Virus record (IMG/VR): IMGVR_UViG_3300033483_000001
Location: 402 to 64,401 of that record
From: a virus
Taxonomy: Duplodnaviria; Caudoviricetes
DNA length: 64,000 nt
Strand: one strand, 5' to 3'
Shown: in pieces, positions 17,869-31,013 of the stretch
Layout of the letters: every line of letters begins with the position of its first letter
How positions within the stretch are numbered: position 1 is the first letter of the stretch
The notes under the pieces: model-generated
Told to the model about the DNA's origin: nothing
What the model saw: only the letters and a program-made list of their open reading frames with translations
The model's database searches: none
Program-made: the position numbers and the translations under genes

Positions 17869-18975
17869 TTACGAAGCGGTCTCGTCCTGGTAGACAACCG
17901 TCTTGATGTAGCGGATGTTCAAGCCAGCGTAGCGGTACCAGCCGGGTACGAAGATATCCAAGCCCTCGGGCTGCGGAGCAAGGAACCGATGAGGCATCGG
18001 GATGTGCATCACCATTCGCTTCTTGTCGTTGCGGTAGAGGACGTTGCGCGGGCACGCGGCGCCGCCAGAGTACTTCGCGCCAGCGGCATCGGCCTGAAGG
18101 ATGGGGACGATGTTCAGCTTCTCGCCAGTGCGAGAAGTCGTCATGTTCCCTTCCTGGATGAGCTCGATGATTCGCTTGGTGCCGAGAGCGTTGTACCGAG
18201 CATTGATCGCCGCGAACGCCTTCGGAGCCAGTCCGAATGTGTTCGGCAGCACCACGAAGTTGGTCTGCGCCCAGTAGGCATAGATCGCGGCGTTGACGTC
18301 GGCAAGGATCTCGTCCGCAGTCGTGCTCGGAAGATCCCAGTCTCCGTGGAACCCGCTCGTCCCTTTGTTGATCGTGGTCACGCCGGTGTAGTTCAGCAGG
18401 CCCTCGTACTTCGCAGCGCCGGCCACGGTCGTCTTTTCTCCGACCATCGCAACCGAGTTCAGATGCCGCTCGCCCATCTCCATGGCGGTCGACATGCGCT
18501 CAGCAGGCAGCGGACGAATCAGTCTAGCAGCCTGGATGAGCTCGAGCTGAGAATACCGATACGCAGCACCACCGCTCACGACCGCGATCTCAACTTCGGC
18601 CGCGGACACATCCGACGTCGGGATGTCCTTGGCGACGCCGTTGATCCGCTTGCCTTGGCCGACGTGATCGTAGACCTGATAGCGGACCGTGGCCGCGTCA
18701 GGCCCAGCCTCGGCGGTGATGGGCAGGAGCGTGCGGAACTGCATCTCCTGGTATTCACGCTCATAGGTCTGCGCCTCGGTGTAGGCCAGCTGCGAGACCA
18801 TGAATGCGATGCCCTCGGCGGAGTCAGCGCCCAACAGGTACGGATTGGCCGTCTCCTGGAAGCACCGGCGGATGCCACGGTCGAAGTCCTGCATACGCGC
18901 CTCATCGAGCGCGACCATTCTCGGCTGGCAGGATTCGGAGTCGACTACTTTGACCAGTTTCTTTCCTTCAGACAT
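17869..18975 (-). CDS. major capsid protein (DUF2184/encapsulin-like HK97 fold)
   Basis: QLAYTEAQTYEREY, YEGLLNY and VLPNTFGL motifs; 368 aa. Confidence 0.9.
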   Translation of the reverse strand: MSEGKKLVKVVDSESCQPRMVALDEARMQDFDRGIRRCFQETANPYLLGADSAEGIAFMVSQLAYTEAQTYEREYQEMQFRTLLPITAEAGPDAATVRYQVYDHVGQGKRINGVAKDIPTSDVSAAEVEIAVVSGGAAYRYSQLELIQAARLIRPLPAERMSTAMEMGERHLNSVAMVGEKTTVAGAAKYEGLLNYTGVTTINKGTSGFHGDWDLPSTTADEILADVNAAIYAYWAQTNFVVLPNTFGLAPKAFAAINARYNALGTKRIIELIQEGNMTTSRTGEKLNIVPILQADAAGAKYSGGAACPRNVLYRNDKKRMVMHIPMPHRFLAPQPEGLDIFVPGWYRYAGLNIRYIKTVVYQDETAS

Positions 18976-18991: not shown

Positions 18992-19522
18992 TTACGTGGT
19001 GGTCTTGGGGTTGCTAACGCCGGTGAGCCGGACGAGCCCGACGCTGCCAGCGGTAGTGGTTGTCACCCAATGCGCATTGGGGATTGCGACGCGACCGCTT
19101 CCAGCCACGCCAGAGGTGGGGCCAGAAAGCTTCCCGCCTTGTGCGGTGACGCTCAGGACACTGTCTCCCGCGGTGACGTTCTCGTAGGCGATGCAGTAGA
19201 CGTCTCCGAGGTACATGATCGCGACTTCCTCGGTCGCGCGGTAGCCAATGGCACCAGTGGACGGGGCAGTCGGCATGGTGACGTGACGGACCGTGATCCC
19301 GATCGGGAGATCTGCGTCCGCGGCGATGCGCTTGCAGTATCCTGCGGTGGCGTGCCGAGCGACTGCAATGCCGAAGTCGAGCATGCCGGCGCTATCATCG
19401 CCTCCGGTCGTGCTGCCATTGGTGAGGCTGAAAATCGAACACTCTTCTTGGTTGGCGATTTGTCCGGCGTACCCCAAATCAAAGGTGGTACCGCCGAAGG
19501 TCGCAAGCGTTGCAACTGCCAT
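18992..19522 (-). CDS. head decoration / cement protein
   Basis: LDFGIAVAR and MYLGDVY motifs; between protease and capsid. Confidence 0.7.
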   Translation of the reverse strand: MAVATLATFGGTTFDLGYAGQIANQEECSIFSLTNGSTTGGDDSAGMLDFGIAVARHATAGYCKRIAADADLPIGITVRHVTMPTAPSTGAIGYRATEEVAIMYLGDVYCIAYENVTAGDSVLSVTAQGGKLSGPTSGVAGSGRVAIPNAHWVTTTTAGSVGLVRLTGVSNPKTTT

Positions 19523-19546: not shown

Positions 19547-20752
19547 TTAGGCGGCCGATGCCTTCTTGGGATGGGTGAGGTTGTAGCAATACGCGGAGTA
19601 GCCCGAGGGCTTGTCCTCCGCATCCGAGGCCTTGCGGCCAGAACCGGCAGTCAGAAGAGCGGCTGCGGTCTGCGAGTCGGCGGCGGTTGTCTGCGGCTTG
19701 GCGGTCGCGCGAGCGGCGGCGAATGCAGCGCGGACAACTTCGGCTGTTGCCTTGTCCACAGCGACTCCGCCTAGAGCGGCGTCAGCCACGGTCTTGATCG
19801 TCTCGTTCTTCGCCGAGGCGGCGGTGATAGCTTCTCGCCGAATCTGATCGACGGTCTTGCCGGCCGGCTTCAGGTCTGGCGCCAGAACAGCAGCGTCAGC
19901 TACGACAACGGCGCGCTCTTCTGCCAGCGCTTCGATCTGTGCCTCGGTCGGGACCTTGGCTTTTAGCGCGGCGATCTCGGCGTCGGCGGCGGTAAGCTTC
20001 CCAGTGGCCTCGGCCAACTTCGCCTCAAGATCCTTCGATACCGTCTCGGTATCAGTGGCCAACTTCAGCGCCGTCTCTGCGTCGGCGGCAAGCTTGACAA
20101 TTTTGGACTGCTGCTTCTCGACGGTGACAGCAGCCACCTCTTCGAGGTCGAGCGGCAGTCCATCAACGATGACTCTACGTGTACTCATGTTGTCGGACTC
20201 CTTGTTTTCTGGGTTCTCGTCGGCGACGCGACAGTCTGGCCCGCCCCGACCCTTGGAAACGATTGCGGTGTGGTTGCCTTCAATGTCGACCATCCATCCG
20301 TCGACCGCCTCGCCCGTGGGCGTGGCCTTCTTGGAATCGTCGAACTGGAAGCGGTAGCCGTTGCTCAGTCCTGACTTCCCGTTGAGAATGTCCTTCACCG
20401 CGCCTTGATCGCGGACGGTCAGCGTCGCCTGCATGTCGTCGCCAACCATCGAGACACCGCGGGTATCGCCGACTGCGTAGGCCTTCCAGTTGTCGGCCGT
20501 CACCCACTTACCCGGTGGGTGGTCGTTCGTGATGGGCGCGCCCTCGAAGGTGGGGACCGACTTGGCCACCTCCTCGCGCGGTCGGTACAACTTCACAATC
20601 CGATTCGGATCTCCGTCCAAACCGATCTCCGCCGCTCGATACGTCTGGATGTTGCCGGCCTTGGCAATCACCCCAGGCGCCACGAGAAAGCCCGCATCGT
20701 TGACAACGCGCTGGCTGATGGCGAAGAGGTCTGAGACAGTGCAGGTCCTCAT
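19547..20752 (-). CDS. prohead protease/scaffold (DUF2213-like)
   Basis: GAPITNDHP, LSNGY and GNHTAIVSKGRGG motifs with coiled-coil C-terminus; true start MRTCTV at 20752 overlaps the MuF stop. Confidence 0.85.
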   Translation of the reverse strand: MRTCTVSDLFAISQRVVNDAGFLVAPGVIAKAGNIQTYRAAEIGLDGDPNRIVKLYRPREEVAKSVPTFEGAPITNDHPPGKWVTADNWKAYAVGDTRGVSMVGDDMQATLTVRDQGAVKDILNGKSGLSNGYRFQFDDSKKATPTGEAVDGWMVDIEGNHTAIVSKGRGGPDCRVADENPENKESDNMSTRRVIVDGLPLDLEEVAAVTVEKQQSKIVKLAADAETALKLATDTETVSKDLEAKLAEATGKLTAADAEIAALKAKVPTEAQIEALAEERAVVVADAAVLAPDLKPAGKTVDQIRREAITAASAKNETIKTVADAALGGVAVDKATAEVVRAAFAAARATAKPQTTAADSQTAAALLTAGSGRKASDAEDKPSGYSAYCYNLTHPKKASAA

Positions 20753-21621
20753 GCAGCCCCCTCCAATTCGATGTAGGGCAATGCTGCGCAGCGACAAAGA
20801 ATATCTTGCCCAGCGTGGCAAGGCTCTCCGTCTACCGATCCGGCGACCGGGCCTGGTTCGTCCCAGCGAAACACCTTGCCGTCTACTTCTTGGTGCGATG
20901 GACGTACGCGTTCGTCCTGCGACGTCGACCACTCGTACTTCTCGATCCCGACTTGCTGCTGGCGCTCCTGGTTGAAAGACGAGTTCATCTTTGCGACTTG
21001 GTCGCGCGCGATGACTTCGGCTCGACTCTCGGTGACATCGCCAACGTGCTTGACCTGTTCGACAATCGATTCCCAGCGTTGGCCTTGGCTCCACCCGCCG
21101 GTGACGGCTTCCTCGACCTTGCCGAGGTACTGCTCTGGCACCGTTCGAATCAAGTCGACGTTGGCCTTTGTGGCGTCCTTCATGCTTTCGAGCAGCGGGC
21201 CATTTGCCCGTAGCAAACTCGACACATCGACGCTGATGGCCTGGCGAATTGAGCTGGCCAGCCGCTCGTCGACATCGTTGCGCACCGACACTGCCGCGAA
21301 GTCGGCCAGCCCCTTGGCCCAAGAGTCGATGTTGCCGAACTTTTTCGCCGCGCTCTTCAGGATGCGCGCGATGCTCATCGGGACGGCATCGCCGACGACG
21401 ATGGAATCTCCTGCCTGCGCCGGCCACTCATCGCGGAGTTGCAGAATTGCCGACTCGACGATCGAACGCATGCGCTTCACCATGGCCAGCAGCCTGGCCT
21501 TGTAGGCCAACTCTGTCTTGCGGCTGGGCCTGACAGCTCGCGCACGCCTGCTCCCGCGCATACGCGCGCGTTGCCTCCGGTTTTTCACCGAGGCAAGCAG
21601 GGTTTGAATGTCGAGGCCCAC
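20749..21621 (-). CDS. MuF-like minor head protein
   Basis: IARDQVAKMN, WSTSQDERVRPSH and DILCRC motifs. Confidence 0.9.
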   Translation of the reverse strand: MGLDIQTLLASVKNRRQRARMRGSRRARAVRPSRKTELAYKARLLAMVKRMRSIVESAILQLRDEWPAQAGDSIVVGDAVPMSIARILKSAAKKFGNIDSWAKGLADFAAVSVRNDVDERLASSIRQAISVDVSSLLRANGPLLESMKDATKANVDLIRTVPEQYLGKVEEAVTGGWSQGQRWESIVEQVKHVGDVTESRAEVIARDQVAKMNSSFNQERQQQVGIEKYEWSTSQDERVRPSHQEVDGKVFRWDEPGPVAGSVDGEPCHAGQDILCRCAALPYIELEGAA

Positions 21622-21732
21622 GAACTCAATTGTGAATCCGCAGCGTCAACAGATGATAGTTTTCCTTGCGTGTCCAGTAAGAAATGGGCTAAAGTGTGTG
21701 GTTAACAGTTCACCGATTAGGAGTAACAACGA

Positions 21733-21984
21733 ATGATGGCCAAAGCGGATTACAGATTGCCCGATGAAACCAGAGAGCGCGTGTCCAAGCTGATCGCGGA
21801 GAAGAGCCTTGGTGGTCAGGGGGGCGCCACGCGGGTCGCCAAGCTTCTTGGCGTCAGCCCCATCACCCTGAAGTGCGCGGTGGCAGGGCTTGAGATTCAG
21901 CCTGGGACGGGTGCGCTCATCGAGAAAAGGCTGGGAGAGCGAGAGGCGAGGAAGTCTGGCCTTGCTGGCGAGGCGGCGAAATGA
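21733..21984 (+). CDS. small HTH-like DNA-binding protein
   Basis: AGGAG RBS; GATRVAKLLGVSPITLKCAV helix-turn-helix pattern. Confidence 0.6.
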   Translation: MMAKADYRLPDETRERVSKLIAEKSLGGQGGATRVAKLLGVSPITLKCAVAGLEIQPGTGALIEKRLGEREARKSGLAGEAAK

Positions 21985-22340
21985 ACCACCCTGGACCGTG
22001 GCGCGAGACTTGGTATGGCGACGAATGGGGACCGCCTGATGCCAACGGAGAGCAACGCCGCAAGCGCGAATTCGGAGAGCCTGGCAACCCTGACGATAGC
22101 TTGGAAGTCGCGCGCGTGCTCGATGCCAATGGAGACGACGTCATGTCGTGGGAATCGCGCGATGAGTGCTGCTATTCCACGGTGGCTGCCAAGCGGATGA
22201 TGCTGGCAGCACCCGAGTTGCTGGCCATGCTCGCGAAGCTTGCCCACGCGTGCAACACTCGCGTACTGTGCGCGGGTCTGCCGGAACTCGCCGAGTCGTA
22301 CGCGCTCATCGCCAGAATAGAGGGGCGCGATGGGAAATGA
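21981..22340 (+). CDS. hypothetical protein
   Basis: coupled to upstream gene; HPGPW start and MLAAPELLAML motif common in phage accessory proteins. Confidence 0.6.
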   Translation: MNHPGPWRETWYGDEWGPPDANGEQRRKREFGEPGNPDDSLEVARVLDANGDDVMSWESRDECCYSTVAAKRMMLAAPELLAMLAKLAHACNTRVLCAGLPELAESYALIARIEGRDGK

Positions 22341-22420
22341 ACCGACCGAACGCGCTGCTAGAGACGAGAAAGAACAAGAGGCAAAGTATGTCGTGTCGCA
22401 ACTGTCGTGGGCGCTACTGA

Positions 22421-23077
22421 CTACCCGATCACCGTCCGCGCCAGCTGATTCTCGATGTCCCCGGTGACGTTCACGTAGCGCTGCCACTTGTCGGGCCAGC
22501 CGGGGTCTACCGTGAGGCCTAGGCCAGCGCAGATGGCGTCTATAGCGAAACGCGGGTGTTCGCAAAACATCTCGTGTGACACCCGCGGGACGCCGGACTT
22601 GGCGTTGTAGGCCGCATAGCCGGCGGCAAACCCGGCATCGGTTAGCACGTCGTCATCAGGCATGAACAGACGCAGGCTGGCTAGCATGTTGGCAGGCGTA
22701 CGCGTGAGCCACGCCTCCCTGAGCTCGAAGCGCTCCCGCAAGGTCTCCACAAGCGTCGAGAGCATCGCTGGCGCGACGTTGTGCCGGCTTGGCACATAGT
22801 CCACGAAGTCCCACGAACGCAGCACCAGCGCGAGCCCACGAGCTCTGAAGGCCTCTTCCAGCGCGGCCACGGTATCGACGAATGGCAGGCCAACCTGAAC
22901 GTCAACGCCATACCATTCGCGAGCCTGCGTGCGCGGGTTGTTCCACTCGTGGCACAGCGTCGGGTGGATCTCGGACAGCAGCGCAACGCCGCTCATGCAC
23001 CCTATGCACCTGGAGACGATTGTCCCACCCGTGCGCGCGAGCCCGTGCAGGATGCGGATGGTTGGCTTGCCAGTCAT
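22421..23077 (-). CDS. sulfotransferase-like protein
   Basis: N-terminal ILHGLARTGGTIVSRCI resembles the PAPS 5-phosphosulfate-binding loop, followed by LLSEIHP; later LTRTPANMLAS and VSHEMFCEHP match the fold pattern. Confidence 0.65.
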   Translation of the reverse strand: MTGKPTIRILHGLARTGGTIVSRCIGCMSGVALLSEIHPTLCHEWNNPRTQAREWYGVDVQVGLPFVDTVAALEEAFRARGLALVLRSWDFVDYVPSRHNVAPAMLSTLVETLRERFELREAWLTRTPANMLASLRLFMPDDDVLTDAGFAAGYAAYNAKSGVPRVSHEMFCEHPRFAIDAICAGLGLTVDPGWPDKWQRYVNVTGDIENQLARTVIG

Positions 23078-23298
23078 GGAAGCGTCGCGATGATGTGGCC
23101 TGCAGTACGGTCGATACGCCTACGCATGAGCATGTTGATCGTGGAGCCATCGATCGTCTCACCTCCGCACTCAGAACAGCGATATCCATCGGCCATGGCC
23201 AGGATGGTGCGCTTGCCTGAGTACACTGACGCGTCGAAGTTGTGGAGCGTGGCAGGCATGAGATCTCCACCGCATTCGCACTTGATATGGCCGCTCAT
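23074..23298 (-). CDS. YgiT/MqsA-type zinc-finger protein (no HTH)
   Basis: CECGG...YRCSECGGETID, two Cys pairs. Confidence 0.55.
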   Translation of the reverse strand: MSGHIKCECGGDLMPATLHNFDASVYSGKRTILAMADGYRCSECGGETIDGSTINMLMRRRIDRTAGHIIATLP

Positions 23299-23993
23299 CT
23301 AAGCCCCCACCGCTTCCGCTCTGCGATCACTTCCTCGCGCGTGTCGCCGCCGTGGCTCCATGCCTGGTAGATCACTTGCTCTGGGCACGGCTCGCGGTCG
23401 GTGCGCAGGATGCGGAACAAATCAGGCCGGCGGGCGACCGCGTAGTTCCCCAGGACGTTGAACTCTGACAGCCGCTCCATTCCCTCCCGAAGGTGCCCGA
23501 TGATGCCGGCGATGCCGCCGATGTGCTGCCACACCTCTGCCAGGAACGAACTCGGGTAGACGAAGGGGAACGTCCGCATCGTCTCGAACGGTGGATCGAA
23601 CCCAAGCACGCGCTTCGTCGATTCGTACCAGCAGATGGCATCGCCGGCTTGCTCCCACGGCGTGACGATGAGCGGCCAGGTGAACGTGCGGAAGTCCACG
23701 GGGCGCACGAATACGCAATCCGAATCCACGAAGCAGATGATATCGGCATCCGTGTGCAGGTGCGCGCGCAGCTTCTCTATGCACTGGCCGCGGTACCCGC
23801 CAACCGGCGTGCCGCCCCAGTTCTCGCAGCGCTGGACCACGACGAACGATGGTACGGGCGGCAGGTAGTGCTGGCGCTCGATTAGCAGGAGCACACGCCG
23901 AAACCCGGTGACGTTCTTTTCGATGGAGTACCAGAGATGCGGCAGCCACTCATAGTCGGCCGGGTGCGACTTGACGACGATGTCGGCGATCAC
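23295..23993 (-). CDS. GT-A glycosyltransferase-like protein
   Basis: IVVKSH N-terminal strand and ICFVDSDCVFVRP (DxD motif). Confidence 0.65.
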   Translation of the reverse strand: MIADIVVKSHPADYEWLPHLWYSIEKNVTGFRRVLLLIERQHYLPPVPSFVVVQRCENWGGTPVGGYRGQCIEKLRAHLHTDADIICFVDSDCVFVRPVDFRTFTWPLIVTPWEQAGDAICWYESTKRVLGFDPPFETMRTFPFVYPSSFLAEVWQHIGGIAGIIGHLREGMERLSEFNVLGNYAVARRPDLFRILRTDREPCPEQVIYQAWSHGGDTREEVIAERKRWGLR

Positions 23994-24661
23994 TTGTACC
24001 TCGGCTCGCCCACGAGCCCGCCCGCGCGCTCGAACATGAGGTCAAATTGCCATAGACGCCCATCAAGCGGCCTGCGCATGACGTCCGCGATGTCGGTAGC
24101 GACGAAGCCGAGCGTCGCGAGCCGCTCCGCCATCCCACCGAATGTGAGCGCGCCTAGCTGTAGCTTGCACGTGTACGCCTCGATCACGAGCGCGCAGCAG
24201 TTAGCCAGCGTGTCGCGCGCGCCGTCCAAGATCTGCACCTCGAACCCGTGCGTGTCTAGCTTCAGCAGGTAGGGGCCAGGGAAGCCATAGCGCGCTACCT
24301 GGACATCAACCGTAGTGCTCCTCACCGCGCGAGTGTCTGGCCTTGAAACCGAGGAACCTTGCCCACCGAACGGATCCGTCGCGTCAGATGCGAAGTTCCC
24401 TTCCCCTTCGTGATCGTCCGCCAGCGCATGCACCGCGTGAGCATTCGGGTGAGCTGCGCAGAATGCGTCCAGTCCTTTGCGGTGCCGCTCGTCCGCCTCG
24501 ATGAGAATCATGTTGGCGTCGGGCCAGAATCGCAAGGCCTCCGCACTCCACCTGCCATCCGATGCGCCGACGTCGATGATCGTAGACGGCTGCACTCGCT
24601 GGCTCGAGCGCGCGAGGAGGTCGGTCATGCCGTTGCCGGATGGATACAGCCTGTCTACCAT
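23990..24661 (-). CDS. FkbM-family SAM-dependent methyltransferase
   Basis: IIDVGASDG, LIEADE, LLKLDTHGFEVQILDG and WQFDLMF motifs; start 24661 or 24628. Confidence 0.9.
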   Translation of the reverse strand: MVDRLYPSGNGMTDLLARSSQRVQPSTIIDVGASDGRWSAEALRFWPDANMILIEADERHRKGLDAFCAAHPNAHAVHALADDHEGEGNFASDATDPFGGQGSSVSRPDTRAVRSTTVDVQVARYGFPGPYLLKLDTHGFEVQILDGARDTLANCCALVIEAYTCKLQLGALTFGGMAERLATLGFVATDIADVMRRPLDGRLWQFDLMFERAGGLVGEPRYK

Positions 24662-24840
24662 GGCGGCACTACTGTGATTTCCCATCCGTATCGGAACGAT
24701 ACAACAGCTATCTTGACGACGAACCCCAAATACATGGAGACTCCAGCGACCATTATGAGCGACGCTGCCCAAAGCAATAACGATACGGCACACGTCCTAG
24801 CTTGCACCTTTGACTCTGCCAGCCATTTGCGAATGTTCAC
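24655..24840 (-). CDS. small membrane protein
   Basis: GTG overlapping upstream stop; hydrophobic stretch AVSLLLWAASLIMVAGVSMYLGFVV. Confidence 0.55.
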   Translation of the reverse strand: MNIRKWLAESKVQARTCAVSLLLWAASLIMVAGVSMYLGFVVKIAVVSFRYGWEITVVPPW

Positions 24841-25751
24841 TTCGAGCGCTTCCCTTTCCGCGCCACCTTCGGCGCCTTCGGTTTCTTCAAGGCATTTGGC
24901 CACGCCGACAGCAGCAGCCGTTTCCATTCGCGACCCACGAGGCTCTGCGCGCACTTCCAGGCGCTGCCGTCCTTCACGCTGGCAATCCACGCGAAGTCTC
25001 TCCCTAGCGTCTTGTACGTGCTCAGAGACAGCTTGTGGGCTCCGTAGAGGTTCGCGACTGCAGGGTGATGGCCAGCCTCGCTGACAAGCACCTGAGAATG
25101 GAAGCAGTCCCACGCCTCGGTATCAGGGCAAACGTGCAACGATGGGTGGTCAGCCCAGCAGCTCATATGCATGGCGAGCGTCCCGTTGACGTGGCGGTCG
25201 TAGAACTGGCTGGCCTCCATGATCGCCCCGGTCACGCGTTTGCCCGTCGCCAGGTTCGCTGCGTGCAGCCTCTTCAGGTGATCGATCCAGTCCCACCGCG
25301 CTGGAACGCCCTCAGCCTCGACGAAGAAGACGTTGTGCCACGGCCAACCCTTCGCCGAGTAGTTTGCATAGCAGCGGTCAGCGGTGCCAGCCCAAAGACC
25401 GAAGCATCCGGCAGGGTGGCCCTTCGCCTCGCGCAGGCTACGCACGTGCGAGACGTAGAACTTCCTCCCGCAATACATCATCGTCTTGGCGATCTCGTTG
25501 TCCATCTTCAAGTCGTAGCGGCTCGCCAGGATGAGCATCACGTCCTCGCGCCTGCTAGGCTCGACGTCGGCAAGGAATCTCGCCAGCCGCAACGCCGCGC
25601 GCTTGTCGCCCTTCCAAAACTGGATGGCGATGGCGAGCTTGAGCGGGTGGTGCCCGGACGCGGCCTGCCTCTGCGAGTGCTCGACCAGGAGGTGGCCCGC
25701 GGCGGTTGCGCCCAAAGGGTGAGACTCGATCATGCTGCGGTGGCGAGTCAT
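24837..25751 (-). CDS. putative glycosyltransferase-like protein
   Basis: LAIAIQFW strand, FFVEAEGVPARWDW (ExE variant of DxD region) and HVNGTL; start coupled at 25751. Confidence 0.4.
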   Translation of the reverse strand: MTRHRSMIESHPLGATAAGHLLVEHSQRQAASGHHPLKLAIAIQFWKGDKRAALRLARFLADVEPSRREDVMLILASRYDLKMDNEIAKTMMYCGRKFYVSHVRSLREAKGHPAGCFGLWAGTADRCYANYSAKGWPWHNVFFVEAEGVPARWDWIDHLKRLHAANLATGKRVTGAIMEASQFYDRHVNGTLAMHMSCWADHPSLHVCPDTEAWDCFHSQVLVSEAGHHPAVANLYGAHKLSLSTYKTLGRDFAWIASVKDGSAWKCAQSLVGREWKRLLLSAWPNALKKPKAPKVARKGKRSK

Positions 25752-25776
25752 CCGAACACCGCCTTCACCTGGGGAT

Positions 25777-25908
25777 TCACTTGTGCTTCCCACGCTCTCG
25801 TAGGAACGACTCGGTGCCAAATCCAATCGCCAAGATGAAAAGCCCAATCGCTACTACCAGGACCCACGCCTGGTACGAATGCGTATCGAAGTATGCCCAA
25901 AAATTCAC
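25777..25908 (-). CDS. 43 aa membrane peptide
   Basis: GTG overlapping ligase stop; AWVLVVAIGLFILAIGFG; not in ORF track. Confidence 0.45.
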   Translation of the reverse strand: MNFWAYFDTHSYQAWVLVVAIGLFILAIGFGTESFLRERGKHK

Positions 25909-26495
25909 GCGCGCACCGGCCATTGATACCCAAAATCGCTTCGCTTGAGTTTGCACAAGCGCCCATCTGGATGGTGCCAGACCACGCCCTCCATGGTGAG
26001 AACCTGGAAGTCTGACCGGAGCGCCACGAAGGCTTCATCAGAGTTGCCGTGCGAGCGGCATCCGAACATCAAGCCGGTCCAAAGCACCTCTTCCCCGTGC
26101 CGGAAGAACCTGTGTTGCGCAAGGCCTTCCGCGTTGGTCTGGAATTTTGGTCCGCACAACTCATATGTCCCAGGCAACGTTGGCCAGACCGCCGAATAAT
26201 ACCACTTGTCTTGCGGCCCATCTCCGACGAGCACCCATCCTGGCCAGTGCCCCGTGTTCTTGTCTGGTTCGGCCTGCGCCGGCACGAAACCATCCGGTGG
26301 GGTCTTACCGCCCTTGGCATCGTAGCGTCGCCAGAGCCGACCAGAATCATCGACCATGCAGCAAGTCCCATCACGCTTCCTGGTAGCCACACCTTCGCCA
26401 TTCAACACCCATTCGCATCCCGGTGTGAGTTGCGGAAGTACCAGCCTTGGGTCGTGGCCGAAGTCGCGAACGAACAGAGAAGGAATCTTCTTCAC
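25905..26495 (-). CDS. RNA ligase-like nucleotidyltransferase (RLIG1/C12orf29, DUF5565-like)
   Basis: ATRKRDGTCC (KxDG motif I), GHWPGWV, YELCG and EGVVWHHPDGRLCKLKRSDFGYQWP; GTG start overlaps upstream stop. Confidence 0.75.
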   Translation of the reverse strand: MKKIPSLFVRDFGHDPRLVLPQLTPGCEWVLNGEGVATRKRDGTCCMVDDSGRLWRRYDAKGGKTPPDGFVPAQAEPDKNTGHWPGWVLVGDGPQDKWYYSAVWPTLPGTYELCGPKFQTNAEGLAQHRFFRHGEEVLWTGLMFGCRSHGNSDEAFVALRSDFQVLTMEGVVWHHPDGRLCKLKRSDFGYQWPVRA

Positions 26496-26776
26496 GCGCG
26501 CACCTTCCCAGTCAGCAGCATATCCTCGTCGGCCACGATGTGCGTAGCGCGCTCGCCGACGAACGAGCACACCCACATGCCACCGTCCGACGCGTGCGCT
26601 ACGACCTGAATCGGCGGCAGTTTCGCCCCGACCTTCAGAGCGAGGCGGTTCACCTTTGGGTTGTTCGTCACCCGAACGTCATCCCAGATTTGCCCGATGG
26701 CAATCCTCGTCTGAGGCGCAGGCGTTGCTTGTTTGGCCGGCGGCACCGGAGCGTCCTTTCGCTTGTGGTCTCCCAT
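26492..26776 (-). CDS. hypothetical protein
   Basis: ATG at 26776 with putative leaderless promoter; stop coupled to ligase start. Confidence 0.55.
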   Translation of the reverse strand: MGDHKRKDAPVPPAKQATPAPQTRIAIGQIWDDVRVTNNPKVNRLALKVGAKLPPIQVVAHASDGGMWVCSFVGERATHIVADEDMLLTGKVRA

Positions 26777-26783
26777 GCGCCCA

Positions 26784-26792
26784 AAGCTAGCA
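26784..26792 (-). promoter_or_regulatory. extended -10 promoter, predicted leaderless
   Basis: TGC-TAGCTT then 7 nt then ATG (26776); AT-rich tract further upstream. Confidence 0.45.
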
Positions 26793-26996
26793 CAACCGTA
26801 CGCTTTGCTCATGAAAAATAATCCCTGGATTAATGCCTTGGGTGGAGAGAAAGGAAGAAAGAATTCCACACCGGGCTAGCCGGTCCAGGGGTGGCACCCG
26901 CATCGGTAGGTTCGGAGGAACAAATGAGCATCCATTCGCGACGGCGGGACGTCGACTTGGCAACCTTAGCACGAATCCGAGCGGATGTGGCGGGAT

Positions 26997-29159
26997 TTAT
27001 GCCTTCGCCTTCTTTGCGTCCCTGGAAGCGTACCGATGCGCCTGCGCAACCGAAGCCAAGTGGTGCGCCCGCTGCACGTTGCCTAGCTCAAACTGCTTGC
27101 GGGCAGCGCCCATCAACACCTTGTGCGCGTCTCGGTGGTCCGCCTCGTCGTAGTCCTTGCCAGCCTCTTCCACGTGCTTGAGTGCTGCGATCGGGAGGAA
27201 GTCCTTCTCTGGGTGTTGCCTGAACGCCTCGTTGGCGGCGAAGTTGTCATCGCGCGCTGGGGCCATCACTGGCTTTCCCTTGCGGGTAGTCCCAATCTGG
27301 CCGCCGCGCTCTCCAAACCTCCCGCCGCATTCGTCGCGAACGATGTCGGCGTCAGTAGCGGTGGCGCCTTCGCCTTCGTCGTCATCCTCGTCTTCTTCCT
27401 CTTCATCGCCCTCCATCTCGGGCGCCGCCGCTGGCTTCTTCCCGAATGGCGCCGCCACAACCTTCGGCGCAGGGCCGTCTGGCGTGCCCGCTTCGGCGTT
27501 TACCGACTCGGCCACCACTTCGCCGTGCTTCGCCTGGAATTCGACGATGGTCAGCTCCCCGTCGGCATCGTGCCACGGCCCCAGGCCCATCTTCGCGCGG
27601 GCCTCGTTGACGGTCACGATCGCCCCTTGCATGGTCGGGGTCAGGCCAAGGTTGCTGCCCGCGGGCTTCGCGCCTTCCGCAGTGGGAGGGGCGCCTCCGC
27701 CCTCGAGTTCTGCCCCTTCGGCATCCATCGGCGCCGACAACCCCTCGGCCAAGTTGACATCGTCCTCAGTCATGTTCGGGTAGGCTCCACTCGCACGCAG
27801 TTCTCGAGCAATAGCTCCCTCGGTAAGCACGCCGATCTGGAAGTACGTGTTATCGCGGGTGGAGTTCTTAACTCCGATGTCCGCTTTCTCGGCCTCGCTC
27901 ATCTGGCGGAGTGGGTTCCACGTGAATCGGTAGTCATCGGGCATGTAGCCGAGCGCCGAGCGAACCATCACCTGGTCAAGCTGGTATAGCTGCGGTGACA
28001 TGTCCGCAGTCTGCTTGGCCGCGACGTGGTCGTCGTAGTTCTGTTGGTCGTGCTCACCCGTGGCGTTCAACCCGCCAGGTGACACGCCGAATAGCCGCGT
28101 GAGCGGCACCTCTGCGGCGCCGGCCACATCCTGGGCGAATCGGTCGAGCAGGTCGCGTAGCCCGCTGAAAGACACCGGCTTGCGGTCGTAGTCTTCGCGG
28201 TCTTTGTCGATAACGATCATGCGATGGACGCTCTTCATCATCGACAGCAGTTGGTAGCGGGCGGCGATTACCGACCGCCCTTTGTCGTCGGCTAGGTTGT
28301 CAGTTAGATCGCCGGCCTTGAGGACGTCCACGCTGGCCTCTTGCACGAGGTGTCCGCACCCTGCGATGAGAGTGTCATAGTTCTTGATCGCAACCATGAG
28401 CGAGCGATAGACGCTGTCATGCCACATGGCATTCCGCATCCAGTCCGTCCACGGCAACTCCTCGCCGTCGAAACGCACACACCGCGTGTGGTGAATCCGC
28501 ATCGAGGTGTCGGCGAGGTAGTAGTATTCAGGCAGGCCGAAGTTTGGATCGCCCAGCTGCTGGTTCAGGTAGGGCACGAGTAGGTGCGGGTTGTTGCCCA
28601 CGAACTTGTCCGGGGGCGCGCCGTAGAGCCGCCAACGGTCGTACACCACGAGCGATTGCAGGTCACCCTTCTTCACGCGATCGACGTTGATCGGCTCGGC
28701 GAGGTCGTCTTGCCCTTTGACAATCATCACGACGATAGCGCCGCCGTAGTGGCGTGCCCACTTCAGCGCGCTGTGGACGCGCTTTGGGAGGGCGACTCGA
28801 AGCTCTTCCCGCTGGATGTCGAAGATTCCGTCATCGTCGCTGCTGCCGTCCCACATGACCGTGCGCCACTTGCGGCACATGTCGTCTGCGATCGAAGTGA
28901 CCACCCTGCGAGCAAGCCACGACGATCGGAAGATGGCGTCGCACGTGGTGCGGTCGACGCCAGTCTCCTGGAGATACTGAGTGTGATAGCTGTGGTCAGC
29001 AGTCGTCCCCATACCAGAGATGAGGTTCTGGATCCCGTCCACCGCGAACACGCCAGGTCGCCCTCTTGGGTCGGTCGGAGTGACGGTCGGGATGCTGTCG
29101 TTGACGACTGGAGATCCGGCGGGCCGCCGCGAGAAGAGTCGAGAGAAGATGTTTGGCAT
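26997..29159 (-). CDS. portal protein (DUF1073-like) with C-terminal extension
   Basis: SSWLARRVVTSIADDMCRKW, IHHTRCVRFDG, AEVPLTRLFGVSPGGLNATGEHD and FTWNPL motifs; follows terminase. Confidence 0.9.
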   Translation of the reverse strand: MPNIFSRLFSRRPAGSPVVNDSIPTVTPTDPRGRPGVFAVDGIQNLISGMGTTADHSYHTQYLQETGVDRTTCDAIFRSSWLARRVVTSIADDMCRKWRTVMWDGSSDDDGIFDIQREELRVALPKRVHSALKWARHYGGAIVVMIVKGQDDLAEPINVDRVKKGDLQSLVVYDRWRLYGAPPDKFVGNNPHLLVPYLNQQLGDPNFGLPEYYYLADTSMRIHHTRCVRFDGEELPWTDWMRNAMWHDSVYRSLMVAIKNYDTLIAGCGHLVQEASVDVLKAGDLTDNLADDKGRSVIAARYQLLSMMKSVHRMIVIDKDREDYDRKPVSFSGLRDLLDRFAQDVAGAAEVPLTRLFGVSPGGLNATGEHDQQNYDDHVAAKQTADMSPQLYQLDQVMVRSALGYMPDDYRFTWNPLRQMSEAEKADIGVKNSTRDNTYFQIGVLTEGAIARELRASGAYPNMTEDDVNLAEGLSAPMDAEGAELEGGGAPPTAEGAKPAGSNLGLTPTMQGAIVTVNEARAKMGLGPWHDADGELTIVEFQAKHGEVVAESVNAEAGTPDGPAPKVVAAPFGKKPAAAPEMEGDEEEEDEDDDEGEGATATDADIVRDECGGRFGERGGQIGTTRKGKPVMAPARDDNFAANEAFRQHPEKDFLPIAALKHVEEAGKDYDEADHRDAHKVLMGAARKQFELGNVQRAHHLASVAQAHRYASRDAKKAKA

Positions 29160-29170
29160 GGTGGTCCTTC

Positions 29171-30541
29171 CTAGAACACTGAGAAAATCGACCGCGCCTT
29201 GTCCGCGCTATTCCAACAGCCTGACAGGCAGTCGACCTGGTCGTCGTGTGAATCGTTCACTCCAGAGAAAGCCTGCACTTCGAGTAGAAACTGATGAACC
29301 CATGGCGCGCTTCTTGGCACGGTAACACGCCCGTCGTTCCATGCCGCCGCCACCGACTGAGCCCGCTGGAACTTGTCACCCTTGGGCTGGTCTTCGCGCA
29401 AGCGGAGTTGTTTCCCGCCGATTTCGCGCATCAGCTGCGGAACGGCCTTGAACCCTCCCACCGACTCGACGAACGCATAGGCCCCGTTGTGCTTGGCCTG
29501 AAATGCGACGAGCTTGCGCACGAATTCAGGAACCGTGACTTGTCCCCGCCACAGGTCCAGCACCTTGGCAGTGCGTTGCTCTTTTCGCCCCCTAACCGCC
29601 ATGCACATCATGACGCCATAGTCAGCTGTGGTTTTCTCGCTGGCCGCTGGGTCGGCGTAGATGACGAGCTGATGGCCGTCGATGCTGTCGTTGTCGTGGT
29701 ATGTCTCTGGCCCAAACAGGGAATGCCCGCGCGGACGAGGCTGGCCCTGGTAGAGTGCTGCAAATGACCACTCGCCGATCTGTGAGCGAATTGCGTGAAG
29801 CGACTCGGGCGGGAAGACTGCAGGCCAGAGAGCCTCGCCTGGCGCGCGATCCAACTGGTCGCCATCCTCCGCGAGCGCGGCGAGGTTGATGTGGTCCCAG
29901 CCCTGCTTGACCAGCCCAGCGATCAAGTCGTCTTGGTGCCACCGCGTGTGGCAGACGACGACGGACGCTCCTTCAAGCCTGGTCATGACAACTTCATTGA
30001 AATTCTCCCAGATCTTAGTGCGCACCACCTGCGAGTCGGCCTCCTCGCGATTCTTGTAGGGGTCATCAACCACCACGAGCCCCTGAAACCCGCGCCCAGT
30101 GAGTCCTGCGCCTGCGCCAGCCGCCACGACCCCGCCGCCTGCGCTCGTGGTCCACTCTCCAGCCGCTTCACTGTTGCCACCCAGCTGCACCCCTGCGAGG
30201 TTCGCGATGTTCCGACATAGCCGCGACTTGGACAGTGCGATCGTGTCGTTGTAGCTAATATAGGCGTTCATGTCAGCCGGCCAGTTCTGCACCCACCACG
30301 CAAGCGCATGCAGAAGGGTTACAGTTTTGGCGTGTCGCGGCGGCATGTGGACGCACAGACGAAGCGGCTCGAATCGAGCTCGCTCCAGCTCTGCCATGAG
30401 AGGCCAAATGTGCCGAGGGGGCGGGTGATGAGGCGACACCCGGCAGATAAAGTCAGCGAGACGTTCGCTTCCGCCAAGGGCTGCCAGGCTCGAAGCGATG
30501 GCCTCTAGTTGGTCCCTACTCAGACTTGCCAGGTCCACCAT
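29171..30541 (-). CDS. terL: terminase large subunit
   Basis: MPPRHAKT Walker A, VVVDDPYK Walker B and HDDQVD nuclease motif. Confidence 0.95.
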   Translation of the reverse strand: MVDLASLSRDQLEAIASSLAALGGSERLADFICRVSPHHPPPRHIWPLMAELERARFEPLRLCVHMPPRHAKTVTLLHALAWWVQNWPADMNAYISYNDTIALSKSRLCRNIANLAGVQLGGNSEAAGEWTTSAGGGVVAAGAGAGLTGRGFQGLVVVDDPYKNREEADSQVVRTKIWENFNEVVMTRLEGASVVVCHTRWHQDDLIAGLVKQGWDHINLAALAEDGDQLDRAPGEALWPAVFPPESLHAIRSQIGEWSFAALYQGQPRPRGHSLFGPETYHDNDSIDGHQLVIYADPAASEKTTADYGVMMCMAVRGRKEQRTAKVLDLWRGQVTVPEFVRKLVAFQAKHNGAYAFVESVGGFKAVPQLMREIGGKQLRLREDQPKGDKFQRAQSVAAAWNDGRVTVPRSAPWVHQFLLEVQAFSGVNDSHDDQVDCLSGCWNSADKARSIFSVF

Positions 30542-31013
30542 CGGCGTCGACCTGTGATTGCTCGGCCACCTTCTCGGCAGCGGCGGCGACTTCGGAAGCC
30601 TTCACGCCAAGTGCGAGCATGATCAACTCGCGCAACTCTGCCGTGGTCCTGGAAGTTGCAGCGGAGCCGAGACTGCCGTCTGGGCTGGACACGTCTACCG
30701 CCACCTTCGGCTTGCCAGCCGAATGCTCGATCAATAGCTTGCGATCGGGGGCACCCTTGAGGCCAGGCAGCATCGCCGTCTTGTAGGCAGCCAAGATCAC
30801 ATCGTCGAGCCGGTTCGTTTTCGCCCCCGGCTCATACTCGCTCATGATCTTCGCGATTCTCGCCTGAGCCGCCATCCAGCGATTCGAGCCGCTTGGATTC
30901 CCGCTCTGCCCAGGCTTCAGCGGCCTCAGGTTAGCGTTTCTTCGCGCCGCTGCGTCAGCACTGGCTGGCAATGGGTTGGGTGTTTCGTCTGTCACAGCAT
31001 CATCATGCCCCAT
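30516..31013 (-). CDS. terS: terminase small subunit (DUF5681-like)
   Basis: LRPLKPGQSGNPSG motif; overlaps terL start. Confidence 0.75.
   Translation of the reverse strand: MGHDDAVTDETPNPLPASADAAARRNANLRPLKPGQSGNPSGSNRWMAAQARIAKIMSEYEPGAKTNRLDDVILAAYKTAMLPGLKGAPDRKLLIEHSAGKPKVAVDVSSPDGSLGSAATSRTTAELRELIMLALGVKASEVAAAAEKVAEQSQVDADGGPGKSE

Follow-up and report, generated by a model that had tools for sequence, protein, structure and literature searches.

What might be built by the enzyme genes lying between the portal gene and a head morphogenesis gene of an uncultured wetland phage, and on which acceptor? The phage is represented by a near-complete 64.4-kb metagenomic genome of an E217/Pam3-like myovirus, of which 64,000 nucleotides (the window) were analyzed. 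It was described as virulent, and a search of its genome for an integrase or resolvase found neither. An earlier note on this DNA had proposed a cassette that could build a methylated and sulfated glycan, a set of enzymes not recognized from phages. The assembly of the region was reproduced by an independent assembler: a single 27.6-kb Logan contig covered positions 20700-29200 with 0 differences, although it derives from the probable source sample.

Organization of the portal–MuF interval

The following features were located, in ascending coordinates.

20749..21621, minus strand: Mu-F-like head morphogenesis protein (MuF; PF04233, 2.1e-23), downstream flank of the insertion
21733..21984, plus strand: p83, small protein adjoining MuF and co-travelling with the cassette, no family match
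21981..22340, plus strand: p119, small ORF, coupled to p83, that converges on the cassette (phrog_1273, 1.8e-3)
22421..23077, minus strand: sulfotransferase-like protein, 218 aa, with P-loop and R-x7-S motifs
23074..23298, minus strand: Cys4 zinc-ribbon protein, 74 aa, with weak YgiT/MqsA-type and TiaS ribbon matches
23295..23993, minus strand: GT-A2, predicted GT6-like/DUF6492-like glycosyltransferase, 232 aa, DxD motif D90-S-D92
23990..24793, minus strand: FkbM-family SAM-dependent methyltransferase (TIGR01444, PF05050, phrog_8156)
about 24655..24753, minus strand: hydrophobic mini-ORF 2, ~32 aa from ATG
24837..25751, minus strand: GT-A1, glycosyltransferase-like protein, 304 aa, predicted GT-A fold
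25777..25908, minus strand: hydrophobic peptide 1, 43 aa (GTG 25908) or 48 aa (ATG 25923), one predicted TM helix
25905-26495, minus strand: RLIG1-like RNA ligase (phrog_14301, 4e-60)
26492..26812, minus strand: p94, conserved ORF of 94-106 aa (ATG 26812 or 26776), opening the inserted block directly after the portal
26997..29159, minus strand: portal protein (PF06381, 3.3e-93), upstream flank of the insertion

The cassette was confirmed at these ORFs, entirely on the minus strand within the portal–MuF interval, and the family matches on its two sides bear out its described placement between portal and head genes. Its four enzymes (GT-A1, the FkbM methyltransferase, GT-A2, and the sulfotransferase-like protein) lie within the late operon, in the head module and not in the replication arm. 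The block additionally holds the RNA ligase and p94, neither of which had been listed before and neither of which is a glycan enzyme.

The run had also been described as translationally coupled, and this holds for five junctions, at which 4-nt start/stop overlaps were read from the sequence: GTGA at p94/RNA ligase, RNA ligase/TM peptide, and FkbM/GT-A2, and ATGA at GT-A2/zinc ribbon and zinc ribbon/sulfotransferase. It fails at the two remaining ones, namely between the TM peptide and GT-A1, where a 23-nt gap is spanned by a 10-codon mini-ORF, and between GT-A1 and FkbM, where the gap amounts to 43-180 nt according to the FkbM start chosen. The promoter that the earlier note had assigned to the cassette was not recovered, since a sigma-70 consensus scan returned 2 sites in 5.7 kb (1.1 expected) and 0 in the 185-nt portal-p94 spacer. 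No terminator-like fold was found after the last cassette gene.

Two predicted GT-A glycosyltransferases

GT-A1 gave no sequence match in Pfam, PHROG, NCBIfam, or the PDB. Its AF2 model (pLDDT 95.2, pTM 0.91) nevertheless retrieved 230 PDB matches at E<=1e-3 by Foldseek with GT-A enzymes at the top, and VIA Z values of 14.8-12.6 over ~200-228 residues were obtained with CHSY3, C2GnT, Manic Fringe, C1GalT1, B3GalT5/6, and XylT1. At the end of strand 140-145 lies E145-A-E147, a putative metal/donor motif, the family consensus being E-A-D. The family comprises 49 clusters, 3 of which, including cellular members, are fused to PF03407 (Nucleotid_trans), and IMG/VR holds 128 relatives. On the basis of the model, GT-A1 is thus predicted to represent a new GT-A-fold glycosyltransferase family that has no Pfam model.

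GT-A2 matched PF20102 under the cut-off (5.8e-4; 19.5 vs 22.9), and three of its homologs carry this domain. Of the two aspartates of its DSD motif, D92 never varies and D90 hardly ever. The AF2 model of a 99%-identical cluster representative (pLDDT 92.2) yielded 308 PDB matches at E<=1e-3, with glycosyltransferases at the top; the best were alpha-1,3-GalT, ABO GTA/GTB, and BoGT6a (E ~1e-8, TM 0.53-0.59). GT-A2, like GT-A1, is thus predicted with high confidence to have a GT-A fold and is taken as a second GT-A enzyme, GT6-like and with a conserved DSD motif, in agreement with the DxD GT-A-like label that it had been given.

Methyltransferase and sulfotransferase-like proteins

The FkbM assignment, made from sequence, is solid: TIGR01444 was matched above its cut-off (4.3e-17, 62.9 bits, cut-off 37.7), and matches to PF05050 at 2.9e-9 and phrog_8156 at 1e-6 were obtained in addition. 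The longest ORF opens at GTG 24793, but translation likely begins at ATG 24661, for a product of 223 aa that agrees with the relatives (224-225 aa).

For the 218-aa protein, the sulfotransferase identity is supported at the family level. The motif residues of L13-A-R-T-G-G-T19 (P-loop), E36-x-H38, and R126-x7-S134 are invariant in 13 homologs, and the family profile matched the CurM sulfotransferase 4gbm (9.4e-4) and the OLS sulfotransferase 4gox (0.073). Sulfotransferases also make up the clusters closest to it in the Atlas (score 0.98), an exhaustive search gathered 1259 clusters of the domain family, and PF13469 passed above its cut-off on the same domain in the relatives P0078, P0083, and P0090. 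The window protein alone, however, stayed under the PF13469 threshold (0.064; 13.9 vs 27 bits).

Recurrence and fusion of the enzymes in related phages

Portal and MuF are direct neighbors in 40 of the 59 related loci, and the cassette is therefore an insertion at a junction whose default state is empty. Other IMG/VR phages have the four enzyme families jointly at this junction, in one orientation or the other; L004/L009, for example, hold all four on the opposite strand between portal and MuF at 47-61% identity for three families, the FkbM match being only distant. GT-A1 is accompanied by GT-A2, mostly as a neighbor, in 34/86 loci, and the survey of GT-A1 loci also found FkbM in 19 loci and the sulfotransferase in 6 distinct contigs. 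Fusions were encountered as well: a single 719-aa ORF in L035, adjoining GT-A1, joins GT-A2, FkbM, and the sulfotransferase with the motifs DSD, RSGGT, and SEVH intact, and GT-A1 is fused to GT-A2 in L034 and in L037/L038. Related cassettes further carry a TylF-type sugar O-methyltransferase and an SDR. The cassettes of L009, L010, L013, L034, and L038 are read in the opposite direction to the head genes, and late co-expression is therefore no general rule.

Both checks that bear on the earlier interpretation, on fold and on co-occurrence, thus left it standing and supported it. Taken together, the sequences portray a mobile, modular insertion, predicted to be glycan-building, at the portal/MuF junction of a myovirus.

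Accessory ORFs of the block

The RNA ligase, mini-ORF 2, and the zinc ribbon are three indels absent from the closest relative. As to the two membrane peptides reported earlier, both hydrophobic ORFs exist (Kyte-Doolittle 19-aa maxima of 2.41 and 2.18). L007 retains peptide 1, there coupled straight to p94. Mini-ORF 2 sits in a 197-nt stretch specific to the studied phage (24852-24655, missing in L007 and L003) and probably does not belong to the functional core. The zinc finger was likewise found as a Cys4 ribbon ORF with matches all under cut-offs; it is lacking in L007, has homologs in no loci but L008 and L010, where they lie elsewhere, and by its distribution is accessory. Absence from the closest relative is the reason why neither it nor the second peptide is counted as core.

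Homologs of p94 occur in 9 loci, after the portal and before GT-A1; family searches gave no match, and its poor Atlas model (pLDDT 0.50) had weak SH3-like matches. On the MuF side, p83 is present in 24 cassette loci and, within the portal-based locus set, only in the four that bear a cassette. Judged by eye, its sequence appears helix-turn-helix-like, and it may be a regulator. p119 is present in 7 loci.

Proposed product and acceptor

From the predicted GT-A folds, the methyltransferase family, the conserved donor-binding motifs, the co-occurrence, the fusions, and the insertion of the block, all of which were shown, we infer the enzyme activities, donors, step order, and acceptor as follows. 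The two soluble GT-A enzymes would transfer sugars from host nucleotide-sugars to the acceptor, the FkbM-family enzyme would O-methylate sugar with SAM, and the sulfotransferase would add sulfate from host PAPS, yielding a short methylated and sulfated oligosaccharide. The acceptor would be a phage-made virion protein, whether the capsid, the cement, or some other head component, by analogy with the virion glycosylation of mycobacteriophages. We tentatively regard such a virion glycan as the best explanation. Co-orientation with the late head genes, the coupling, and the lack of an integrase point to a virion protein as the most likely acceptor, which is favored over a host envelope glycan. 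No TM segments were found in the cassette enzymes. In cellular relatives, the sulfotransferase domain is frequently joined to TPR and GT41 protein-glycosyltransferase-like modules, which lends support to a virion target; that no obvious Ser/Thr-rich extension was seen in the capsid and cement proteins counts against it. Also unfavorable are the reversed orientation of the cassette in the loci named above, the lack of PAPS or nucleotide-sugar synthesis genes in the phage and the sub-threshold Pfam scores of the window sulfotransferase and GT-A2 taken alone.

The same enzymology may instead serve a host envelope glycan (an undecaprenyl phosphate-linked intermediate of O-antigen, EPS, or capsule, or else a surface glycoprotein), where receptor remodeling during infection would block superinfection or spare progeny from debris. 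This reading is somewhat unlikely, even though surface glycans are the usual product of the matched GT-A families (GT6, GT8, GT14, and GT31-like), the block includes a conserved small TM peptide, the sulfotransferase-domain relative P0090 is fused to the capsule-synthesis domain PF05159, and in several phages the cassette, like a moron, is oriented independently and accompanied by an HTH-like gene. Family scans of the block and a limited sampling of neighbors revealed no flippase, polymerase, GtrA/B-like protein, or polytopic membrane glycosyltransferase, and the genes lie in the late operon of the studied phage; the absence of an integrase or resolvase makes classical lysogenic seroconversion unlikely. 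It is improbable that the cassette glycosylates, O-methylates, and sulfates a small molecule, such as a host-made anti-phage metabolite, so as to tailor or inactivate it. Natural-product tailoring relatives do exist (FkbM as the FK506 O-methyltransferase family, TylF-type methyltransferases, and CurM/OLS sulfotransferases), and MAG contigs with the GT family were binned as Myxococcota, which are prolific metabolite producers. As far as is known, however, almost every glycosyltransferase of natural-product pathways belongs to GT-B (GT1), whereas both cassette enzymes are predicted GT-A with glycan- and protein-directed best matches, and GDP-mannose-4,6-dehydratase/epimerase, which accounts for 19/110 neighbor proteins of distant GT-A1 loci (best E 7e-139), fits glycan synthesis.

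A pile-up of unrelated accessory genes at an insertion hot-spot, without a joint pathway, is most improbable. The junction does accept unrelated cargo (an ADP-ribosyltransferase-domain gene in L139), so that position alone may reflect a hot-spot and not a head-related function, and the three indels are independent of each other; the in-frame fusions, however, already largely refute it, and together with the repeated co-occurrence across divergent phages in differing gene orders they make a lack of functional coupling hard to accept. Hardly more credible is hypermodification of phage DNA bases (glycosylated 5hmC/5hmU), with methyl and sulfate further decorating the sugar. The cassette is close to packaging genes, and it shares with DNA hypermodification clusters the possession of viral GT-A-fold enzymes, those glycosylating 5hmC being known from phages and common in IMG/VR (bioRxiv 10.1101/2023.12.21.572611). 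Such clusters, however, usually combine C5-MT/5mYOX or ThyS with GT-A/GT-B enzymes (same source), and these defining partners are absent here: no Tet/JBP dioxygenase, thymidylate-synthase-like hydroxymethylase, or C5 DNA methyltransferase was found in the genome, although the Tet/JBP negative is weak because the Tet_JBP positive control gave no match anywhere. A DNA target is unlikely for want of 5hm-pyrimidine genes, and the head-module position argues likewise.

Relation to known systems

In temperate Shigella/Salmonella phages, O-acetyltransferases or GtrABC (a flippase, a bactoprenol glycosyltransferase, and a polytopic glycosyltransferase at the prophage att end) alter the O-antigen. The studied phage resembles these seroconverting phages in bearing putative glycan-altering genes, and differs in its soluble GT-A enzymes, its head-module location, and the missing integrase. 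In the Nod-factor fucose of Rhizobium sp. NGR234, NoeI is a fucose 2-O-methyltransferase and NoeE a PAPS-dependent fucose sulfotransferase. By analogy only, such an O-methylated and sulfated deoxyhexose would fit the GDP-mannose-dehydratase neighbors of the GT family; the NGR234 pathway is cellular, symbiotic, and directed at a lipo-chitooligosaccharide.

[quoted passage not shown] The same two articles list an O-methyltransferase with three tandem glycosyltransferases in the cluster O Corndog type, cluster F Che8 gp107-110, and Myrna. As outlined there, the likeness lies in glycosyltransferases adjoining an O-methyltransferase; the present cassette adds a sulfotransferase, has relatives with multi-domain fusions, and belongs to another host and lineage (E217/Pam3-like wetland myovirus vs actinobacteriophage), and its action on the virion is a prediction, whereas the mycobacteriophage enzymes modify virion proteins. 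A tblastn search with the three non-FkbM proteins gave no match in 50,697 GenBank phage records, which agrees with the claim that the set is not one recognized from phages. The recurring and fused cassette suggests that phages may be able to make a methylated, sulfated glycan so far undescribed for them.

The same sulfotransferase-like domain family also occurs in uncharacterized giant bacterial TPR-GT41-methyltransferase-sulfotransferase proteins (e.g., P0076, 2416 aa), one of which unites it with FkbM, another sulfotransferase domain, and a glycosyltransferase. These differ from the cassette in being cellular and in employing GT41 (GT-B) with TPR repeats.

Genomic context and gene organization of the cassette

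The record (64,401 bases, of which the window covers 64,000) was rated 100% complete by CheckV, and its genes were arranged in two arms. The minus-strand late arm opens with the small terminase gene (30516-31013), continues with those for the large terminase and portal, and then for head and tail, and reaches base 14; the plus-strand early/replication arm starts at about 32,400. The structural proteins were of the E217/Pam3 myovirus type (major capsid PF09950 at 17869-18975, cement PF22758 at 18992-19522, DUF2213 protease/scaffold, DUF3383 sheath and Baseplate_J), with capsid identity to the nearest deposited phage capsids of at most 38%. Because no tyrosine or serine recombinase (integrase, resolvase) was found in the window genome, the phage is probably virulent. 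Cassette DNA was contained in wetland metagenomes from two studies, and positions 20700-29200 were spanned with zero differences by one contig of the independent Logan assembly, obtained from the probable source sample. For one sequencing run (X2), an indexed share of 0.81 of the stretch was not borne out by its contigs, and none of the sequencing runs listed was of RNA.

The cassette forms a minus-strand block between the portal gene (26997-29159) and the gene for the Mu-F-like head protein (MuF, 20749-21621), as listed below.

Genes of the cassette in transcription order, and the two small genes facing it (window coordinates)
26492-26812, minus strand: p94, first after the portal gene
25905-26495, minus strand: RLIG1-like RNA ligase (phrog_14301, 4e-60), second
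25777-25908/25923, minus strand: hydrophobic peptide of 43-48 aa, third
24837-25751, minus strand: GT-A1, 304 aa, fourth
about 24655-24753, minus strand: window-specific hydrophobic mini-ORF, fifth
23990-24793 (start probably 24661), minus strand: FkbM methyltransferase, sixth
23295-23993, minus strand: GT-A2, 232 aa, seventh
23074-23298, minus strand: Cys4 ribbon, 74 aa, eighth
22421-23077, minus strand: sulfotransferase-like protein, 218 aa, ninth
21733-21984 (p83) and 21981-22340, plus strand: two small genes converging on the cassette

The coordinates and gene list of an earlier note, which had described a glycosyl-, methyl- and sulfo-transferase cassette, proved to be right, since the ORFs were found as listed there and 4-nt start/stop overlaps were read directly in the sequence at five cassette junctions. 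The same note had also credited the cassette with its own promoter, a claim that was not borne out by a consensus scan of the 185-nt portal-p94 spacer, in which none was found. No terminator-like site was detected 3' of the portal gene or of the last cassette gene by scanning and by folding of the 3' end. Transmembrane segments within the cassette were confined to the two hydrophobic mini-ORFs, and family searches gave no match for p94, whose poor Atlas model (pLDDT 0.50) drew only weak SH3-like matches.

Glycosyltransferases and methyltransferase

The AF2 model of GT-A1, built with 44 homologues, reached a pLDDT of 95.2, and Foldseek returned 230 PDB matches at E ≤ 1e-3 with GT-A glycosyltransferases at the top. 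The second structural aligner, VIA, gave Z values of 14.8 (rmsd 5.3, 228 aligned) against 9q8z_A and 14.3 (rmsd 3.8, 222 aligned) against 2gam_D, and the matches with Z of 14.8-12.6 over 200-228 residues comprised chondroitin synthase, C2GnT, Manic Fringe, C1GalT1, B3GalT5/6 and xylosyltransferase 1. The modelled fold, a single Rossmann-like alpha/beta/alpha, places GT-A1 in the GT-A fold superfamily. At the end of the predicted strand 140-145, an invariant E145 is followed by A and then by E or D (consensus EAD), representing a putative ExD/ExE variant where GT-A enzymes carry DxD, as placed from secondary structure and not by superposition. At the sequence level, the family found no match in Pfam, NCBIfam or PHROG and none among PDB sequences; its profile gave only chance matches to the latter, such as NS3 protease at E of about 0.7, and single-sequence PDB searches with GT-A1, GT-A2 and the sulfotransferase-like protein likewise returned no match. 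GT-A1 is, as modelled, a new sequence family inside the GT-A fold.

Three longer relatives of GT-A1 are joined to a Nucleotid_trans domain (PF03407). A profile scan of IMG/VR identified 128 relatives. Among 185,579 species genomes, only five loci were found, all on MAG contigs and three of them in Myxococcota, and two of the five contigs also bear terminase, portal or MuF genes. The family is nearly confined to viral DNA.

The AF2 model of GT-A2 had a pLDDT of 92.2, and its best Foldseek matches were alpha-1,3-galactosyltransferase (alpha3GalT), the ABO enzymes GTA/GTB and BoGT6a (E of 1.5e-8 to 1e-7, TM 0.53-0.59), so that the predicted fold is nearest to those of the retaining GT6 enzymes. 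Its DxD motif is D90-S-D92, in which D92 was invariant and D90 at least 90% conserved among 12 sequences. GT-A2 scored 19.5 bits against PF20102 (DUF6492), under the gathering cut-off of 22.9, and this domain was present in three more distant GT-A2 homologues. The methyltransferase, judged by its profile scores, is clearly a member of the FkbM family (TIGR01444, 62.9 bits against a cut-off of 37.7; PF05050, 37.7 bits against 22.7).

Sulfotransferase-like protein

The 218-aa product of the last cassette gene scored 13.9 bits against PF13469 (Sulfotransfer_3), under the cut-off of 27. On the same domain, this cut-off was passed by the relatives P0078, P0083 and P0090 (35.5, 32.3 and 28.4 bits, respectively), and PF13469 was carried by two close homologues of the window protein. 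Three elements were invariant in the family, namely LARxGGT, a P-loop that follows the first strand, then SE-x-H, and R paired with S as R-x7-S; the residues invariant in 13 homologues were L13, A14, R15, G17, G18 and T19 of the P-loop together with R126 and S134. The P-loop after strand 1 and the R-x7-S pair correspond to the PAPS-binding elements of sulfotransferases, which bind the 5'-phosphosulfate and the 3'-phosphate, respectively. Furthermore, the family profile matched the CurM sulfotransferase at 9.4e-4, with the R...S segment aligned to LVRHPYSVIES of CurM, and the language-model protein Atlas placed the protein among sulfotransferase clusters with a score of 0.98. The 218-aa protein is predicted to be a PAPS-dependent sulfotransferase, a prediction supported at the family level.

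An exhaustive profile search for the domain yielded 1259 cluster representatives, and the cellular relatives were often fused to TPR-GT41 modules. Giant proteins such as P0076 (2416 aa), P0078, P0083, P0086 and P0101 combine TPR repeats, GT41, Methyltransf_11, FkbM and a second Sulfotransfer_1 with the sulfotransferase domain, and represent an uncharacterised bacterial architecture for predicted glycosylation-sulfation.

Core and accessory genes

In the closest relative of the cassette, L007, the GT-A1 gene is 87% identical in nucleotides and its product 94% identical. DNA comparison demonstrated that L007 lacks the RNA ligase gene, the Zn-ribbon gene and a stretch of 197 nt in which the second hydrophobic mini-ORF lies; because these three are absent from L007, the predicted core of the cassette consists of the four enzymes GT-A1, FkbM, GT-A2 and sulfotransferase, together with p94 and the first hydrophobic peptide. 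Two 14-nt copies of GGTGCGCGCGTGAA (25904-25917 and 26491-26504), of which none would be expected by chance, exactly bracket the RNA ligase gene, and each contains a GTGA stop/start overlap. A single copy, joining p94 to the hydrophobic peptide with no ligase between them, is present in L007. The RNA ligase gene appears to have been gained or lost as one exact, gene-sized unit through recombination at a translational-coupling junction, and on this sequence evidence is an independent insertion outside the cassette proper.

The gene p83 lies beside MuF in 24 loci that bear the cassette, and every portal-MuF locus free of the cassette lacks it. Its product matched no protein family; it appears HTH-like by eye and may serve specifically to regulate the cassette.

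Insertion status was assessed by a portal-profile scan, which returned 80 related loci, in 59 of which both portal and MuF were seen. The portal gene abuts MuF (gap ≤ 6 nt) in 40 of these 59, and insertions of at least 2 kb occupy the junction in nine loci, namely the cassette in four, the distinct cargo of L139 in one, and short ORFs with no known identity in the rest. The cassette is an insertion, and the portal/MuF junction is a hot-spot for cargo. At L139:11231-12742, the glycan cassette is missing and the junction instead encodes a protein of 503 aa, in which an ADP-ribosyltransferase exoenzyme domain was recognized (PF03496, 5e-18) and which may be a toxin-like cargo next to MuF.

Co-occurrence, gene fusions and sugar context

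Co-occurrence was counted in 80 GT-A1 loci of the 128 IMG/VR relatives by HMM searches on six-frame ORFs. GT-A2 accompanied GT-A1 in 34 loci, usually as its neighbor, and FkbM in 19, while the sulfotransferase occurred in six distinct contigs, each time inside the cassette. A second phage, L004/L009 (63.9 kb), carries GT-A1 (61%), GT-A2 (47%, plus a 30% paralogue), the sulfotransferase (57%) and a distant FkbM between portal and MuF, although both their strand and their order differ from those in the window. In L035, directly after the GT-A1 gene, a single 719-aa ORF encodes GT-A2 (28-229), FkbM (280-490) and the sulfotransferase (500-713); the DSD motif of GT-A2 is retained in this fusion, and RSGGT and SEVH are also intact. 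In addition, GT-A1 and GT-A2 are joined in one ORF in L034 and L037/L038. Because they are in frame, these fusions provide strong evidence for the prediction that the cassette genes form one pathway.

In related cassettes, other sugar-tailoring genes have been exchanged in: that of L029 has a TylF-type O-methyltransferase, and that of L025 an SDR epimerase/dehydratase. In a group of phages of about 70 kb, a GDP-mannose 4,6-dehydratase/epimerase adjoins GT-A1 (19 of 110 neighbor proteins, best E 7e-139), and these neighbors of distant GT-A1 members hint that the donor of the family could be a GDP-6-deoxyhexose. A genome scan of the window phage detected neither a GDP-mannose dehydratase/epimerase gene nor an APS kinase, and thus the phage would take nucleotide-sugars and PAPS from its host.

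The contigs of this group (L044-L085, about 30 in number; e.g. L044:2572-17888) have in common a conserved gene row with families of about 650, 190, 90, 700, 105, 445 and 305 aa, then GT-A1, variable sugar genes including the GDP-mannose dehydratase, and a family of about 430 aa. The flanking families f2, f3, f5 and f6 had no match in Pfam, PHROG or PDB, and a possible location of this GT-A1 inside a head module found no support from hhalign, in which comparison of the flanking families with the alignments of portal and capsid gave negative results, at probabilities of 0.2-0.3. The 305-aa flanking family f4 has an invariant DDD motif that appears GT2-like by eye.

Predicted product and acceptor

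The best-supported reading of the cassette is a glycan-building and tailoring module with putative enzyme activities, in which the two GT-A transferases would add sugars, the FkbM enzyme would O-methylate and the sulfotransferase would sulfate the product. As the acceptor we tentatively favor a virion protein, at not quite an even chance, given that the cassette is part of the late head operon here and the phage has no integrase, that the enzymes are soluble, and that fusion to TPR-GT41 is frequent among cellular relatives of the sulfotransferase domain. Moreover, as far as the accounts in PMC11600133 and PMC12363180 go, the only experimentally established phage cassette combining a glycosyltransferase with an O-methyltransferase acts on proteins of the capsid and tail tube (Freeman 2023). 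Against a virion target, several relatives carry the cassette in inverted orientation, and its site is a hot-spot, which weakens any function argued from position alone; a Ser/Thr-rich C-terminal extension that could serve as an acceptor tail was sought in the capsid and cement proteins, and nothing convincing was found.

The main rival acceptor, a glycan of the host envelope, we consider less probable. Gtr-type seroconversion systems are temperate and rely on membrane-embedded GtrA/GtrB/Gtr, whereas the window has no integrase or resolvase and the cassette bears transmembrane segments in its two mini-ORFs only. Glycosyltransferases may also act in DNA hypermodification, whose glycosyl pathways are usually clustered with dioxygenase, ThyS or C5-MT genes (bioRxiv 10.1101/2023.12.21.572611); this role is unlikely here because genes forming 5hm-pyrimidines are absent from the genome, namely PF00303 (ThyS-like), PF00145 (C5-MT) and PF12851 (Tet/JBP, a profile that was also negative in every control genome). 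Tailoring of a small molecule is possible, but fits poorly with the GT-A folds.

Taking the virion as the target, it is conceivable, although on balance doubtful, that this lineage of uncultured wetland phages coats its virions with a sulfated, O-methylated and possibly deoxyhexose-containing glycan, for which phage enzymes alone, a phage-restricted GT-A family among them, would suffice, some members having a single GT-methyltransferase-sulfotransferase polyprotein. If true, a bacteriophage would for the first time be credited with a sulfated glycan, and the resulting polyanionic particle could be altered in its adsorption to soil/EPS matrices or shielded from recognition. Sulfated glycans would then join the phage surface chemistries, which bears on the way phages interact with soil and wetland matrices and on phage-coat engineering. 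The ORF of L035 is a compact natural GT-methyltransferase-sulfotransferase fusion, and its direct expression could reveal the product.

Relation to known phage systems

To our knowledge, the phages known to encode glycosylation of their own virions are limited to a few actinobacteriophages. The GT-A1, GT-A2 and sulfotransferase families had no homologue in 50,697 deposited GenBank phage records by tblastn, and the region had no match in GenBank phages by blastn. As GT-A1 and GT-A2 had no tblastn match in these records at E ≤ 1e-3, no homology to the mycobacteriophage glycosyltransferases Che8 gp110 and Corndog gp38 was detected. Phage glycan cassettes as such are already known; new here are the enzyme families, the integral and sometimes fused sulfotransferase, the phage lineage and the habitat. 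In viromics papers, sulfotransferases have only been listed as auxiliary metabolic genes without context (e.g. PMC8290583). The present analysis adds a sulfotransferase within a conserved, sometimes fused, four-enzyme predicted glycan module in the head-gene block, and a large, nearly virus-confined GT-A family that has no Pfam model.

Variation of the portal gene

At its C-terminus, the window portal is extended by about 200-240 residues (26997-27720, residues about 480-720); Ala, Pro, Gly and acidic side chains abound in this extension, which includes an EEEEDEDDDE run and is missing from the 527-aa portal of L009. Logan contigs from several runs end or diverge near 27372-27408. In six loci of one clade (L021, L026, L028, L031, L043 and L089), the ORF/HMM map showed an apparent inversion, in which the portal gene and the adjoining terminase and MuF genes lie on different strands and overlap by 4 nt at their ends.
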